Source of the DNA: Escherichia phage vB_EcoM_P54
Sequence record: PV390658.1
Strand: one strand, 5' to 3'
DNA length: 64,000 nt
In this document: positions 14,991 through 20,619 of the stretch, one piece after another
Position numbering within the stretch: position 1 is the stretch's first letter
Layout of the letters: every line of letters starts with the position of its first letter
Translations under genes and position numbers: made by a program
Notes under the pieces: generated by a model
The model's database searches: none
What the model was told of the DNA's origin: nothing
Seen by the model: only the letters and a program-made list of their open reading frames with translations

Positions 14991-15047
14991 GCTTTTTATA
15001 ATTTTTTGCAGTAATGTATGAGGTTAATGATTTTAGAGGGAGTAAAA

Positions 15048-17747
15048 ATGGAAAACGTAGATTTTAAAAACTTACATTTAGTTGGTGATACAGAAACTGA
15101 TGGTTTACTCCTTGAGTTCACTAAGGTGCACGTAATGGCTTTCGCAGACTATAAATCTGACGACGAAGAGCCACCTGTATGGGTCTTTACAGATGAACCT
15201 ATCCTCGGTCACAAGTATACCAAGTACATTAAGGGTGGTTTGCGTGAAGGTATTGAGTTTGCGTTAAAGGCAAAACGACTTTGCATCCATAATGGTTTAG
15301 GATATGACTGGTGGGTTTTCAATCACATTGCACCTGATTTGTGGAACTTTGATAATCCAAAGTGTAAGCCGTGGAGTAATTTCTTTCAGGATTCTCTTAT
15401 CCAGTCTCGTGTTCAATGGATGGATAGACCAACTCCAAAAGGCTATAAAGGTGCTCATGGCTTGGCAGCATGGGGTGCTCGTGTTGGTGTCCGTAAACCA
15501 GAGATTGAACATTGGGGTGTGTGGAATGCAGAAATCTTCACTCGTGTTGTGGAAGATATCCGTATTAACGCCAAAACTAAACGTGCACTGGATAATGAAT
15601 ATCTCAAGCTGAAGAAGTGTGGCGTAGATACTTATGAAACCTACATGCGAGCTAAAGAAACATCTTTCTGGATGAGTCAACAAGCTATCAATGGTTGGAA
15701 AGCTGATAAAGAGCTTATGGAGTTCCATGTAAAGGAACTTGACAAGTTGACTAATGAGCTTGCTTCAGAAGTTGAACCACATCTTCCTCCAACTATTAAG
15801 ACCAAAGGTAAAGTCACTGGAGAAGAATTTGCAAAAGCTTGGAATGAGTATGTTGAAGCATTCGGTCATGCAGATGGACTGAAGAGAATTACTAAGTACC
15901 CTAAGACAAAGTATCGTCAGCAGGTACGTAATGGTGAGATGCAGACATATGAAATCAAGCCATTTGGTAAACCAACTACCAAGATTTTTAACATTGAAAA
16001 GCGGAATTGCTATACACCAACCAACTCTGTAACTGGTGAAGAGTACAAGGAAGGCTTTGTAGCAATGAAGGATGCTCGTGCAATTTGCAATGAGTTGAAT
16101 GCAAAGATTGGTAAGAAGTGCAAAGACTGGAAGCCAGTAAAAACAGTTAAAACTGTGAAGTACTATAACAGCCATGTTGTTAACCACTTTGAGCTTGAGT
16201 CAAGTCGCTACACAGGTTTGATTGATGCACCATATACACCAATTGAGTTCGAAGTTTCTCGTATGACTCAGGTAGCAGTTGTTAAAGACTACTTGAAATC
16301 AGTTGGTTGGATTCCAGATGACTGGAACTATAAGAAAGACTCTGATGGTCGTCCTGTTAAGGTTTGTCGCTTCAAAGACAACAAAAAGATGATTACAAAA
16401 CATCCTAAGTGGGATGAGATGGTGGAACGGTGTGGTTTGAGTTATGTTGAACACGAAGGTGTCCAGTACATTGAACATAACTGGTCTGTGAAGAAGTACA
16501 CAGATTTGCTTGAGCCTTGCTTAATCCGTACTTCACCAAAACTTACTGAATCATCTTATGATACAATTGAAGGTGAGCTTGGACAGAAGATTGCGAAATA
16601 CTATACTTTGATGCACCGACGCAGAACTATTGAGAACTCAAAGGATGATGAAAAAGGTTGGTTGAACCAGATTCGTCCTGACGGTCGCCTTAGTGCTGGT
16701 GCAATGGTGTTTGGTACTTCAACTGGACGTATGACACAGTATGGTATTGTAAACGTACCGTCTGGTGCTGCTGTCTATGGGGAACCAATGAGGGCAGTGT
16801 GGATTTGTGAAGAAGGTACTAACGTTGTCTCTGTAGACATGAACTCAGCCCAGCTAGTTCTTCTTTGTAACTTTATGGGTGACAAAGACTTCACTAAAGC
16901 GGTAACGCAAGGTAAAGAAGAGATTGAGTTTATTCGTCAAGAAGATGGACGCTATTACTGCAAACATTTTGATGAGTACCTCAACCCAGAGATTGATAAG
17001 TACCTTCGCTATGACTCTGAGAATGACCTTTACGTTGTCTATTCAGGGACTGATGCACACACACTGAACAGTATTTACTTTAGCTTGAATGATGAGCAGG
17101 ATATCTTGACTTGTCGAGCTACTCAGGATGAGAACCTTCTCCATGAGATTAGCAAAGGTCGTAAGAAAGCTAAGAATGGTATCTATGCACTGCTGTTCGG
17201 TGCAGGTGATGAGAAGTTTGCTAAGACAATTAAGGCTGCAACTACTCAGGAAGGTGCACTGACTAAGCAGACTTACTTTATCCGTTTGCCTAAGATTAAG
17301 AAGCTGCTAGATGACTTGGAAGCTGACTACAAAGCAACTAAGAAGGCACTTGAAGAGGTGTTTGGTAAGACCGCTGCAATCTCTAAAGGGGGTTTTGTAA
17401 AGGTTGCTGGAGCTTGGTTGTGGTGTAAATCTCCACACAAACTGTTGAACTATCTTTTGATGGGTTCAGAGGCTCAGATTCAAAATGAGGCGATTAACCT
17501 TGCTTGTCGTCGTATGATTGACGAAGGTTTGATGAAGTTGAATGGTCGTCAACCAGCTATTGGTGCTCGTTTGCTCTGCGCATATCACGACGAGACGAGT
17601 TGGGAATGTCCAGAGAGTATGACGGCAGATGTGAAAGCAGTTACTGACTGGTATTATGGGCAAGCTTCTAAAAACTTAGGTCTTAAGAAAGAAACGCTTG
17701 TTACAGGCACTGGTAAGGTTGGCAAAAGCTGGCTTGAAGTACACTAA
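15048..17747 (+). CDS. DNA polymerase, family A, with 3'-5' exonuclease domain
   Basis: Exo I motif VGDTETDGL; motif B-like KNGIYALLFGAG; motif C-like YHDETSWECPE; start set at ATG 15048 (MENVDF) behind a GAGGGAG RBS rather than track start 15018. Confidence 0.9.
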   Translation: MENVDFKNLHLVGDTETDGLLLEFTKVHVMAFADYKSDDEEPPVWVFTDEPILGHKYTKYIKGGLREGIEFALKAKRLCIHNGLGYDWWVFNHIAPDLWNFDNPKCKPWSNFFQDSLIQSRVQWMDRPTPKGYKGAHGLAAWGARVGVRKPEIEHWGVWNAEIFTRVVEDIRINAKTKRALDNEYLKLKKCGVDTYETYMRAKETSFWMSQQAINGWKADKELMEFHVKELDKLTNELASEVEPHLPPTIKTKGKVTGEEFAKAWNEYVEAFGHADGLKRITKYPKTKYRQQVRNGEMQTYEIKPFGKPTTKIFNIEKRNCYTPTNSVTGEEYKEGFVAMKDARAICNELNAKIGKKCKDWKPVKTVKTVKYYNSHVVNHFELESSRYTGLIDAPYTPIEFEVSRMTQVAVVKDYLKSVGWIPDDWNYKKDSDGRPVKVCRFKDNKKMITKHPKWDEMVERCGLSYVEHEGVQYIEHNWSVKKYTDLLEPCLIRTSPKLTESSYDTIEGELGQKIAKYYTLMHRRRTIENSKDDEKGWLNQIRPDGRLSAGAMVFGTSTGRMTQYGIVNVPSGAAVYGEPMRAVWICEEGTNVVSVDMNSAQLVLLCNFMGDKDFTKAVTQGKEEIEFIRQEDGRYYCKHFDEYLNPEIDKYLRYDSENDLYVVYSGTDAHTLNSIYFSLNDEQDILTCRATQDENLLHEISKGRKKAKNGIYALLFGAGDEKFAKTIKAATTQEGALTKQTYFIRLPKIKKLLDDLEADYKATKKALEEVFGKTAAISKGGFVKVAGAWLWCKSPHKLLNYLLMGSEAQIQNEAINLACRRMIDEGLMKLNGRQPAIGARLLCAYHDETSWECPESMTADVKAVTDWYYGQASKNLGLKKETLVTGTGKVGKSWLEVH

Positions 17748-17763
17748 TTAGTATTGACAAGGT

Positions 17764-17797
17764 GCTCATGGAAGAGTACCTTATACTATATCTTGTA
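17764..17797 (+). promoter_or_regulatory. putative promoter with TTGACAAGGTG box upstream of the small-gene cluster
   Basis: TTGACAAGGTG at 17764-17774; TATACT 22 nt downstream. Confidence 0.4.
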
Positions 17798-17808
17798 TAG
17801 GAGGTCAC

Positions 17809-18027
17809 ATGACACTTTCAGAGATTGAAGTTCAGTTGCAATGTGCAGGTTATTCTCAAAAAGAGATTGAAGGGATGTTTATTGTTCTTTGCAGTAGCTG
17901 TAGGAATTTGAAGGTAAACCCTGAAGTTCTACGTAGAGTAGATATCTTTATTGCTGGAGATAAAATCGCAAAAGATAAGACAGGCTACTTAAAAGGTGAG
18001 CGTGTAAATATTGAGAGTTTACTATGA
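17809..18027 (+). CDS. small protein, paralog A of a tandem pair (72 aa)
   Basis: GGAGG RBS; shares MTL start and C-terminus DGKIAKDKTGYLKGERVNIESLL with paralog B. Confidence 0.5.
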   Translation: MTLSEIEVQLQCAGYSQKEIEGMFIVLCSSCRNLKVNPEVLRRVDIFIAGDKIAKDKTGYLKGERVNIESLL

Positions 18028-18233
18028 GCCACCGTGGAAGAACCCATGCAGCGATGATGAAAGGTGCTTCAAAGGAAACTATCAAGAACCGTAAGCAGAA
18101 GTTGTTTGAGAGAATGAACAGGTTAATTGACAATTCATCTCTTTCAGGTTCTGAGAAGGTTTTCTTGAAAGGTAATCTGAAAAGCATTGCACAAGAACTT
18201 ATTGATATTGAATATTGGAGACATCAAAAATGA
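18024..18233 (+). CDS. small basic protein (69 aa) between the paralogs
   Basis: ORF track; start overlaps the stop of the upstream gene. Confidence 0.4.
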   Translation: MSHRGRTHAAMMKGASKETIKNRKQKLFERMNRLIDNSSLSGSEKVFLKGNLKSIAQELIDIEYWRHQK

Positions 18234-18448
18234 CACTTGCAGACGTTATTCAGCAACTTCACGATAATTGCTACACTCCTGAGTTGATTCAAGAGATGCT
18301 TATTGTGGTGATGCCTAGTAAGTTCTTAAAAGGTTTTAATCGTGAGGCTTTAAAGGTCGCACATATCCTTATCGTTGACGGTAAGATTGCAAGAGACCGT
18401 ACAGGTGTTCTTAAGGGTGAACGCATTGATATCTTGGAATTGTTATGA
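18230..18448 (+). CDS. small protein, paralog B of a tandem pair (72 aa)
   Basis: Start refined to ATG 18230 (MTLADVIQQL) with GGAGA RBS; C-terminus DGKIARDRTGVLKGERIDILELL. Confidence 0.5.
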   Translation: MTLADVIQQLHDNCYTPELIQEMLIVVMPSKFLKGFNREALKVAHILIVDGKIARDRTGVLKGERIDILELL

Positions 18449-18605
18449 ATAGGTTATATAGTCTCTGGGGAAGGATGGGTAAAGACTCTGATTGGAACCT
18501 ACTAAAAACAAACGTAAAAAGTAATGAGATAGCGTACTACAAAATTCATTACTACAAAACTTTCAGAGAGCTTGAGTATCGTGAACAACAGACAGGAGAA
18601 GTATT

Positions 18606-18842
18606 ATGTGGAAATCAGTAATTGTGCTTGGTGTTATTTTTCTAGCTGGCTGCAACCCTTCTTATGAAGATAAAAATGCTTCTTATAGCCTCCCACCAGA
18701 GATGCAAGATTGCAAAGTCTATAAGTTGCATGGTGATGCCATAAGTAGAGATATTGTTGTTGTCAGATGTCCAAACTCTCAAACAACAACATCTTATAGT
18801 TATGGAAAAAATGGTCAATCACACACTACGGTTATTGAGTGA
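18606..18842 (+). CDS. putative lipoprotein (78 aa)
   Basis: Signal peptide MWKSVIVLGVIFLAGC with lipobox LAGC. Confidence 0.5.
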   Translation: MWKSVIVLGVIFLAGCNPSYEDKNASYSLPPEMQDCKVYKLHGDAISRDIVVVRCPNSQTTTSYSYGKNGQSHTTVIE

Positions 18843-18852
18843 GGTTTTCACG

Positions 18853-19059
18853 ATGGAAGTCCTAGTAAACTATATCTATTGTTATGATGTTGTTCACTCC
18901 ACTACAACCGTAGCTCAACGTAACCCAATTGTCCCACGAGAAGGTGAATTGGTTCGCATTGAGGGTTGGACTTACACTGTGGAAAGTATCATTCATAAGT
19001 TTGATGTTGCTGGTGATGTTCAAGTTATCGACGTAGAGATTGGTGGTAAGAGAAAATGA
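18853..19059 (+). CDS. hypothetical protein (~68 aa)
   Basis: ORF track 18754..19059 overlaps the lipoprotein gene; internal ATG 18853 has a GAGG RBS. Confidence 0.4.
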   Translation: MEVLVNYIYCYDVVHSTTTVAQRNPIVPREGELVRIEGWTYTVESIIHKFDVAGDVQVIDVEIGGKRK

Positions 19060-19215
19060 AACCTAAGCAAACAATGACAGATGCAACCTTCACAGTACAC
19101 AGCTTCGAAAGGTTGCACATCAAAGATACAAAAGATACACCAAAATGCGTTGTACATTTTATTAAAAGGAGTAGTAACATGTCCTATATGAAATCTGACA
19201 AAGGCAATAGCACAA

Positions 19216-19407
19216 ATGAATAAAGAAGACAAGCATAAAAATGCTGTACGGACTCCTGATGGAAAGGTTCAATCCTTCATCCTGACAGTTGGTGGAAAGC
19301 CGTTTCGTTGCCACTGCGGAGCAAACTGTTTTCATAAACCAGATAAAAATGACTTAGAGCTTTACGCATGTAATGCTTGTAATACTTGGTATCACTCAGA
19401 GGAATAA
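19216..19407 (+). CDS. small Cys-rich zinc-ribbon-like protein (63 aa)
   Basis: CHCGANCFH ... CNACNTW cysteine/histidine pairs. Confidence 0.4.
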   Translation: MNKEDKHKNAVRTPDGKVQSFILTVGGKPFRCHCGANCFHKPDKNDLELYACNACNTWYHSEE

Positions 19408-19408
19408 A

Positions 19409-20512
19409 ATGACAATACTGTACAAACAAAATAAAGACGGCTCTTTTAACGTCTGGTCATGCGTTGCTGTAGGTGACAAAGTTATTACAACCTACGGTAA
19501 AGAAAATGGCAAGATGATGTTTGAAGAGTACACAGCAGAACCTAAAAACATCGGTAAAAAGAATGAGCGTAACGCTGAACAGCAAGCTCTCTTTGAAGTT
19601 GCTGCTAAGTATAAAAAGCAGGTTGACCGTAAAGGCTACGCTTACACAAAAGAGTCTGCACAGAATACTGAGAAGGTAGGTGTACAGCTTGCTCATGATG
19701 CTGCAAAGGTTAGTCATGCAAAGTATCTGAAGTTCCCTGCTGATGCTCAACCGAAACTTGATGGTGTCCGTTGTAGGATTTCAAGGCACTTGAGTATTGG
19801 CAGTGTATTTACAGCATATTCTCGTGAGAATACTGTTTACAAAATCCCTACTGAACTAATACCTGACATTATGGCAATGTTAAGGCTCCACAAAGATGTT
19901 GATGAATTTGATGGAGAGATTTATGCTCATGGGTGGGACTTAGAAGATATCGTCTCCATGATTAAAAATGAAGACAATCCTGACAGACACTTGCTCAAGT
20001 TTTACTGGTACGATATCTGTGACAGTACTAAGACGTGGCCTGAGCGTAGAGATATTATTGAGACTTCACCATTGAATGACTTTAGAGATGGCTGTAAAGT
20101 TGTTCCTGTTAAGTCTCGTCGTGTAAATTCTTGGGAAGAGTTTGATGAAGCCCATGATAAGTGGGTTGAAGCTCAGTTTGAAGGTGCAATGTACCGTTCA
20201 ATCTCTGAAGACTCCTTCTATGAGTGTTGTCACCGTTCATACTTCTTGATTAAGCACAAGAAGATGCACACTGAAGAGTTTAAAGTGACTGGTGTAAAGA
20301 CTGATAAGCGTGGTCATGGCAAGTTCGTTGTAGAGACTCTTCCTAACGTCTTTGTAGATGTCTCATGGAAGACTACTCATGAGAAGAAACAGTATCTTGC
20401 TGAGCATCCTGAAGAGTTTATCGGGAAACCTTTAACGGTTCAGTTCCAGAAGATGACTCGTAAGGGGTCTTTACAGTTCCCTGTTGGGCTGGTTATACGA
20501 GATTATGAATAA
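19409..20512 (+). CDS. ATP-dependent DNA ligase
   Basis: Adenylation motif I KLDGVR; size and layout like T7-type ligases; start set at ATG 19409 behind GAGGA. Confidence 0.8.
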   Translation: MTILYKQNKDGSFNVWSCVAVGDKVITTYGKENGKMMFEEYTAEPKNIGKKNERNAEQQALFEVAAKYKKQVDRKGYAYTKESAQNTEKVGVQLAHDAAKVSHAKYLKFPADAQPKLDGVRCRISRHLSIGSVFTAYSRENTVYKIPTELIPDIMAMLRLHKDVDEFDGEIYAHGWDLEDIVSMIKNEDNPDRHLLKFYWYDICDSTKTWPERRDIIETSPLNDFRDGCKVVPVKSRRVNSWEEFDEAHDKWVEAQFEGAMYRSISEDSFYECCHRSYFLIKHKKMHTEEFKVTGVKTDKRGHGKFVVETLPNVFVDVSWKTTHEKKQYLAEHPEEFIGKPLTVQFQKMTRKGSLQFPVGLVIRDYE

Positions 20513-20518
20513 AAGTTG

Positions 20519-20546
20519 TTGACATAGAAAATTTGGTGAGTATACT
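20519..20546 (+). promoter_or_regulatory. sigma70-like promoter (TTGACA-16-TATACT) embedded in an 8 bp inverted repeat
   Basis: TTGACA at 20519-20524, TATACT at 20541-20546; GGTGAGTA (20535-20542) pairs with TACTCACC (20566-20573). Confidence 0.5.
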
Positions 20547-20619
20547 GAGCAGCATAAACCAACGGGTACTCACCAGCATCACTTAAGAGTCTTCTAAGAA
20601 GGTTTTTAAGTGATGCTCG

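Follow-up and report, generated by a model that had tools for sequence, protein, structure and literature searches.

Two apparently long-separated allelic lineages of a 72-residue protein family flank a conserved basic gene in Escherichia phage vB_EcoM_P54

In a stretch of 64,000 nucleotides of Escherichia phage vB_EcoM_P54 (PV390658.1; hereafter the window), two genes encoding related 72-aa proteins, A and B, flank a gene for a small basic protein, mid, immediately downstream of the DNA polymerase gene. The comparisons presented here indicate that A and B are true, retained and diverged paralogs, and that they represent two old, long-separated allelic lineages occupying two slots rather than the products of a recent local duplication. 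On balance we lean towards the view that anciently diverged allelic cassettes are shuffled by recombination at this locus and, more tentatively, propose that they encode allele-specific, dispensable binding proteins. The genes are:

17809..18027, + strand: gene A, 72 aa, A-type member of PHROG 4230, slot 1 (before mid)
18024..18233, + strand: gene mid, 69 aa, basic, PHROG 5180
18230..18448, + strand: gene B, 72 aa, B-type member of PHROG 4230, slot 2 (after mid)

All three lie exactly where a preliminary description of this DNA had placed them, with the same lengths and the same ATGA start/stop overlaps (A/mid junction 18024-18027, mid/B junction 18230-18233), and the overlapping codons suggest that their translation is coupled. 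The middle protein, described there as basic, has a computed isoelectric point (pI) of 10.3, with 15 K+R against 7 D+E, and A and B have a pI of about 6.1. The genes stand at the head of a run of co-oriented small genes that follows the polymerase gene; the flanking core genes encode a family-A DNA polymerase (15018-17747) and an ATP-dependent DNA ligase (19373-20512). No third copy of the family was found elsewhere in the window, which we assign to Felixounavirus and which is about 97% identical to E. coli phage vB_EcoM_Shy across 15000-20600.

The paralogy of A and B, first noticed from the sequence alone, held under proper alignment statistics. BLASTP aligned the two proteins without gaps (30/72 identities, 42%; 50 bits; E 3e-15), and both matched the PHROG 4230 profile end to end (positions 1-72 of 72; E 2.3e-35 for A and 6.2e-42 for B), a similarity far beyond chance; mid likewise matched PHROG 5180 over positions 1-69 of 69 (E 2.3e-46). 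This similarity is confined to the proteins: as DNA, A and B are 52% identical, synonymous divergence (dS) is about 1.8 and hence saturated, and no DNA repeat links the two genes besides their first 14 nt:

17809..17822, + strand: 14-nt direct repeat ATGACACTTTCAGA, matching the start of B at 18230-18243 in 13 of 14 positions

The same string opens B in phages TP1 and SUSP1, where B follows the polymerase gene and mid is missing, and the repeat is a candidate recombination site for deletion of A plus mid. In a neighbour-joining tree the A clade received 93% bootstrap support, the single-copy members from loci L031, L027 and L028 fell between A and B, and basal nodes did not exceed 66%. Because dS is saturated, nucleotide identity is low, the shared repeat is limited to 14 nt and the tree, though weakly supported at its base, places other members between the two, a recent local duplication is argued against.

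The C-terminal consensus given in the preliminary description was correct except for one detail: B reads DGKIA, as written there, and A reads GDKIA. Within this block 14 of 23 residues are identical in A and B, but only 3 of these 14 use the same codon, which points to selection on the protein, not to recent gene conversion. Recent conversion was also considered on its own and rejected, third-position identity in the block being 0.35.

To describe the locus in relatives, we used the A-mid-B segment as a blastn query, which retrieved 272 phage records, and arrangements were tallied in an even-step sample of 60 of them:

mid-B: 29/60 records
B only: 12/60 records
A-mid-B: 8/60 records
A-mid: 6/60 records
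mid only: 4/60 records
C-mid: 1/60 records

The tally agreed with protein-level and hidden Markov model searches. At least 80% of the query was covered in 35 of the 272 records (about 13%), and tblastn found an A-type gene in 65 of 251 records, about 34 of which hold two copies. Most relatives therefore carry a single copy and about 13% carry both, which answers a question raised by the preliminary description. The blastn alignments break at query positions 234 and 441-444, that is, at the gene boundaries. Named examples are:

Window, Shy, UAB_Phi87: polymerase-A-mid-B
Felix O1, Bas63: polymerase-HNH-mid-B
Moogle, Silverhawkium, L066-L068: polymerase-A-mid-other gene
Maleficent: polymerase-HNH-C-mid
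TP1, SUSP1: polymerase-B, without mid
Erwinia Kolesnikvirus locus: mid without any family member

The C gene of Maleficent belongs to a third type that shares 53% identity with B and 40% with A, and a search beside mid in the Erwinia phage locus turned up no hidden family member. Among the examined loci, A-type genes precede mid and are the sole family member in Mooglevirus; B-type genes stand after mid, or directly after the polymerase gene if mid is absent, and are the sole family member in most Felixounavirus and in Suspvirus. Wherever mid is present in these loci, a family gene in slot 1 is of the A or C type and one in slot 2 is of the B type.

Comparison of synonymous divergence along the locus revealed junctions between segments of different history. 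Between the window and Mooglevirus Silverhawkium (L004), the proportion of synonymous differences (pS) is 0.23 in A and 0.54 in the adjacent polymerase C-terminus (Fisher p 2.6e-4). When the window is compared with several mid-B phages, it is 0.10-0.15 in mid and 0.47-0.52 in the adjacent B (p 6e-5 to 5e-4). The junctions are not restricted to gene boundaries. Silverhawkium and L066 have a near-identical polymerase gene (pS 0.10) and mid (pS 0.08), and their slot-1 genes are equally close over codons 1-23 (pS 0.07); over codons 24-64, pS rises to 0.54-0.60 and the proportion of nonsynonymous differences (pN) reaches 0.15-0.45. This switch of allele after codon 23 is an intragenic breakpoint. 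Furthermore, the polymerase of the window is equally near those of mid-B phages (L007, L013), of the B-only phage TP1 and of another A-mid-B phage, and the arrangement is therefore polymorphic among close relatives.

A separate observation was made at the other end of the segment. Against Shy (L001), the closest relative overall, homology over window positions 18427-18621 breaks near codon 66, within the 3′ part of B: the ending ...ERIDILELL gives way to ...ERISIDI, and the next gene, of 58 aa, is another allele, 54% identical. The 3′ end of B thus holds another intragenic mosaic junction.

We conclude that recombination exactly at the ATGA overlaps, and also inside the genes, shuffles A, mid and B, and that the A-mid-B state is made and unmade by exchanges at and within the cassettes. 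These behave as independent units although they lie directly downstream of a promoter-like element and are probably coupled in translation. In many relatives (Felix O1, Maleficent, SUSP1, Bas63, SapYZU01) an HNH homing-endonuclease gene lies between the polymerase stop codon and this element; the window has none at the corresponding site, 17748-17753. HNH insertions could promote cassette exchange. Loci L002, L012, L014 and L018, which hold extra sequence at this site (confirmed as an HNH gene for L002), have a strongly diverged polymerase C-terminus, at 76-77% aa identity.

Mosaic clusters of small genes between core replication genes are known from virulent T4-like and T5-like phages. The locus resembles them in that its genes are short, co-oriented, translationally coupled, swapped at gene boundaries and variably present, and in that homing-endonuclease genes adjoin the site in many relatives. 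It differs from them in that two old alleles of one family sit in one genome around an unusually conserved gene, and in that alleles also switch inside a gene.

The competing account of this history, which we consider doubtful, is a local tandem duplication around mid in the ancestor of Felixounavirus, Mooglevirus and Suspvirus, followed by specialisation and later loss in most lineages. The equal length of A and B, their gapless alignment and common first 14 nt, the constant gene type in each of the two slots around mid and the single copy in more distant relatives are what such an event would leave. However, synonymous sites are saturated and no residual DNA repeat is left, the tree, weak at its base, does not place the single-copy outgroups beyond an A+B clade, and the history of A differs from that of both the flanking polymerase gene and mid. 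The arrangement also varies among genomes with near-identical polymerases, so that many independent precise losses would be needed. The preliminary description had called A and B tandem paralogs and retained duplicates, and a local tandem duplication is not supported: besides the dS of about 1.8 and the discordant history of A, each lineage occurs alone in most relatives.

Upstream of the cassettes lies a conserved region, in which we distinguish:

17754..17787, + strand: promoter-like element TTGACA-N22-TATACT, at the head of the small-gene operon
17799..17804, + strand: Shine-Dalgarno sequence AGGAGG, 4 nt 5′ of the A start codon, read from the sequence

The promoter-like element starts six bases past the stop codon of the polymerase gene, and the window has a single copy of it. 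Its spacer contains a 9-bp inverted repeat (AAGGTGCTC / GAGTACCTT) with the loop ATGGAA, the predicted hairpin having a folding free energy (dG) of -18.8 and a z-score of -2.5. The spacing exceeds that of a canonical sigma-70 promoter, and a sigma-70 scan did not call the element because of its 22-nt spacer; an Rfam scan of 17600-18700 gave no match. Across all loci that we examined in Felixounavirus, Mooglevirus and Suspvirus the element stays near-identical, differing by a few substitutions at most and regardless of the gene that comes next; it is labelled 'promoter' in the AYO145A record. The AGGAGG sequence is likewise kept in relatives ahead of whichever gene stands first. At the same place, distant relatives have TTGACA-N16-TATAAT and a stem of other sequence around GGAAG (L027:4717, L028:516), so that the stem looks like a covarying one. 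The element could be an operator or a regulated promoter.

To assess selection on the three genes, we calculated omega from Nei-Gojobori estimates, which gave 0.10-0.21 for A, a median of 0.10 for B and 0-0.09 for mid. Judging from these values A, mid and B are under purifying selection, and they are real protein genes. Purifying selection on both paralogs, together with the divergence of their central segment, agrees with the earlier wording of 'retained diverged duplicates'. In most of the Felixounavirus loci sampled, the mid protein is 100% identical. As a separate observation, its pS of 0.10-0.15 is three to five times below the value for neighbouring B when the same pairs of genomes are compared. 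This low synonymous divergence might stem from a recent sweep, from recombination that frequently homogenises the gene, or from selection acting directly on the nucleotide sequence.

Expression data exist for Felix O1, whose open reading frame (ORF) numbering we checked against the GenBank notes: ORF93 is the ortholog of B (90% identity; B is 87% identical to Bas63 gp44) and mid is ORF94. The ORF93 transcript was detected by reverse-transcription PCR and was maximal at 25 min after infection, as were those of the polymerase ORF96 and the ligase ORF88 (PMC3185647 Table 3). The preliminary description had made its proposal depend on expression in relatives, and transcription of the ortholog is on record for B. 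Its assignment of the locus to an early region needs correction: the gene is expressed, but the 25-min peak is that of the 'middle' class, shared with polymerase and ligase.

We then examined predicted structures. The AlphaFold2 model of B, built on the family alignment, is confident (predicted local distance difference test score, pLDDT, 91.5; predicted template modelling score, pTM, 0.77) and has the elements H3-12, H17-21, E25-28, H38-43, E46-49, E52-56 and H68-71; B is accordingly predicted to be a compact alpha/beta domain. The model had no match among solved structures, winged-helix and other helix-turn-helix regulators included. A search of BFVD returned an A-type family member at a template modelling (TM) score of 0.86, which suggests that A and B have a common fold. 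The model of mid (pLDDT 87.2) consists of helices 3-13, 17-36 and 42-68.

Conservation is distributed very unevenly over the family. Invariant or near-invariant residues are M1, T2, Q9, L10, Y15, I20, M23, I25, I46, I48, G51 and K52 and, in the C-terminal part, I53, D56, T58, G59, L61, K62, G63, E64 and R65. Column entropy is 0.73 bits over residues 46-65, 1.14 over 1-23 and 1.95 over 24-45, and pN within the A and within the B lineages is 0.15-0.48 at residues 24-45 against 0.00-0.05 at residues 1-23. The predicted constant part comprises the N-terminal helices and the C-terminal hairpin/loop with the motif GKIxKDxTGxLKGER, and residues 24-45, a central strand-loop-helix, are hypervariable. 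Such a segment fits different specificities of A and B.

Together these features suggest a functional model that we put forward tentatively, as possible rather than probable. A and B would each be a dispensable binding protein expressed in the middle phase, whose constant face docks a conserved partner and whose variable face fits a fast-evolving, strain-specific host factor. This factor might be a defence component or a takeover target, and any host target of A or B is a conjecture at this stage. A phage with both alleles would cover more targets or hosts.

Several points weigh against the view that shuffled allelic cassettes encode such binding proteins. The tree of the 72-aa family has poorly supported basal branches, and A may have passed between genera in either direction. 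An ancestral A-mid-B state followed by repeated precise loss would also yield the present distribution, though it needs more events. The evidence for binding consists of protein size, conservation pattern, presence/absence variation, allele swapping and context, and the deep conservation of position after the polymerase gene could instead point to a role in replication. Finally, PhageMaP on Bas63, in which about two-thirds of genes were non-essential (PMC11482910), makes no mention of gp44 (B) or gp45 (mid) as defence counters or triggers. Felix-like phages are outside the scope of the HIDEN-SEQ and transposon essentiality preprints, and a literature search for a Felixounavirus transcriptome found none.

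An alternative that we judge unlikely is a three-protein module, in which the acidic A and B bind the basic helical mid, for example to modulate a nucleic-acid-binding regulator. The genes are adjacent with ATGA coupling, the charges are complementary (pI of about 6.1 vs 10.3), mid is extremely conserved, synonymous sites included, and a family member stands beside it in about 73% of sampled relatives. Nevertheless, about 20% of relatives, TP1 and SUSP1 among them, have B but no mid, the Erwinia Kolesnikvirus locus examined has mid but no family member, an unrelated gene precedes the family gene in distant relatives, and A is paired both with Felix-type and with Moogle-type mid. The module proposed in the preliminary description is hence not obligate, A-mid, mid-B, B alone, mid alone and C-mid all being found; an obligate one is unlikely because there are at least six combinations, with breakpoints at gene boundaries and inside genes.

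Quite unlikely, in our opinion, is a replication accessory factor, that is, a family protein binding the family-A polymerase or another part of the replisome, with A and B as isoforms. Wherever its surroundings were visible, the gene follows the polymerase gene immediately or at a distance of one or two genes, also in the distant L027 and L031, and its expression peak coincides with those of polymerase and ligase. On the other hand, the family is absent from the Kolesnikvirus locus examined, and alleles are swapped among genomes with near-identical polymerases.

A further alternative stems from a local similarity of B-type proteins to WaaK (RfaK), the lipopolysaccharide core N-acetylglucosamine transferase that makes the Felix O1 receptor sugar. 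B, and all 12 other B-type members tested, match the NCBIfam model NF012028; for B the match covers model positions 122-170 only (E 1.3e-4), with 21.2 bits against a cutoff of 618. BLASTP aligned B residues 4-49 to residues 122-166 of Salmonella WaaK (17/46 identities, pairwise E 5e-8), including PS(K/Q)FLK(G/A)F, and a shuffle test gave p 2e-7 for B, 0.4 for A and about 0.02 for the C-type and L031 members. B-type genes might accordingly derive from or mimic a WaaK segment and interfere with receptor synthesis, which, if true, would for instance spare progeny adsorption to debris or exclude superinfecting phages, and the A-type allele would then address another host factor. We consider such an origin highly improbable, and a real functional link to WaaK equally so. 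The profile-profile probability is 22%, the model of B shows no match to a glycosyltransferase GT-B fold, and the bit score is far under the cutoff. WaaK, a GT4 enzyme, has about 380 aa against 72, and the likeness is local (about 46 residues) and found in the B-type only. B is not a member of the WaaK family NF012028, and the similarity is provisionally treated as a coincidence or a convergent beta-alpha-beta pattern. Recent capture of WaaK DNA was rejected on its own account, no DNA similarity being detectable between B and WaaK.

A last alternative, that A, mid and B are chance reading frames or mis-annotations, takes its argument from an opposite-strand ORF and from the UAB_Phi87 genome paper, which lists a minus-strand ORF instead of mid, and deserves virtually no credence, as it is already refuted by selection and conservation data (purifying selection in the + frame, full-length PHROG matches, conserved ribosome-binding site and ATGA couplings), the transcription of ORF93 and confident structure models. 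The opposite-strand ORF spans the A/mid junction of the window (17948-18187, - strand, 79 aa), and the one in that paper is orf100, of 104 aa. The minus-strand ORF is probably spurious, since the selection analysis favours the + strand genes.

Returning to the allelic family itself, its breadth is narrow. More than 250 GenBank phage records annotate these genes as 'hypothetical protein', and no function is recorded for PHROG 4230 or PHROG 5180. We built a profile from 25 sequences of the A and B types; run against 1.84 billion cluster representatives, it found 12 clusters at E <= 1e-3, none with an annotation. Word-indexed homology searches returned close relatives only, and tblastn of the distant member P0153 against GenBank phages returned nothing. 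From this distribution, PHROG 4230 appears almost confined to Ounavirinae and near relatives, and wherever neighbours could be seen its gene lies between those for DNA polymerase and DNA ligase. Only one copy is present in the most distant members, and those with recognisable neighbours occupy this position too: that of L031 directly follows the polymerase gene, that of L027 lies between polymerase and ligase behind one unrelated gene, and that of L028 lies upstream of the ligase gene, behind a gene related to the one preceding the L027 member.

Domain libraries gave little else. Pfam yielded nothing above noise for A, mid or B, NCBIfam only the local WaaK match for B, and the PDB sequences matched by profile searches were de novo designed proteins or coiled coils, with E > 0.07 throughout. 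PADLOC had no match for A or B and one weak 14-bit match for mid; in the defence and anti-defence models of PADLOC, Pfam and NCBIfam, libraries that hold few phage anti-defence proteins, none was assigned. Beyond the family, Foldseek against BFVD found two weak Kuravirus matches, phiEco32 gp100 and EP335 A0A2Z3DNU6 (probability 1.00 for both; TM 0.62 and 0.59; E 7e-3 and 2e-2). The first of these is encoded by:

L064:26521-26742: phiEco32 gene 100, 73 aa, Kuravirus podovirus; string pair ...HYLIIDGVLVKSRHGW with ...AHILIVDGKIARDRTGV

This protein (phi32_100) is, judging by its length, presumably UniProt B0FIR2. Alignment of the family with gp100 by hhalign gave a probability of 55% and E 1.2e-4 over 55 columns, with the common string HxLIxDGxxxKxRxG, and gp100 is a probable remote homolog. 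It differs in belonging to another phage group, the Kuravirus podoviruses, in ending right after the hairpin without LKGER, and in not lying beside a polymerase gene. The phiEco32-related paper that we searched assigns no timing class to gene 100.

Two neighbours in the same gene run were also recorded. The gene at 18606-18842 encodes a 78-aa protein with a lipoprotein-type N-terminus (MWKSVIVLGVIFLAGC) and a PHROG 902 match; phage Maleficent carries a homolog whose annotation reads 'membrane lipoprotein'. Immediately ahead of the ligase gene, 19216-19407 encodes a 63-aa Cys-rich protein (CxC...CxxC), 78% identical to Bas63 gp40. According to PhageMaP, Bas63 gp40 is a trigger of the hhe defence system and is toxic only with hhe present.

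Neither the Felix O1 genome paper nor that of UAB_Phi87 treats A and B as paralogs, and in the papers searched neither the split into A and B lineages nor the two-slot arrangement nor the cassette polymorphism is described. The locus represents ordinary phage mosaicism of a catalogued but uncharacterised family, PHROG 4230, rather than a novel type of system. Felix O1-like phages find wide use in Salmonella typing and in the biocontrol and therapy of E. coli and Salmonella, and about two-thirds of their genes are dispensable and lack characterisation (PMC11482910). In this group the locus offers a compact, well-defined case of allelic cassette exchange, with an orphan fold, a constant scaffold, a hypervariable segment of 22 residues and natural genomes with zero, one or two alleles, and these features make it convenient for deletion and allele-swap work on host range or resistance to defence systems.

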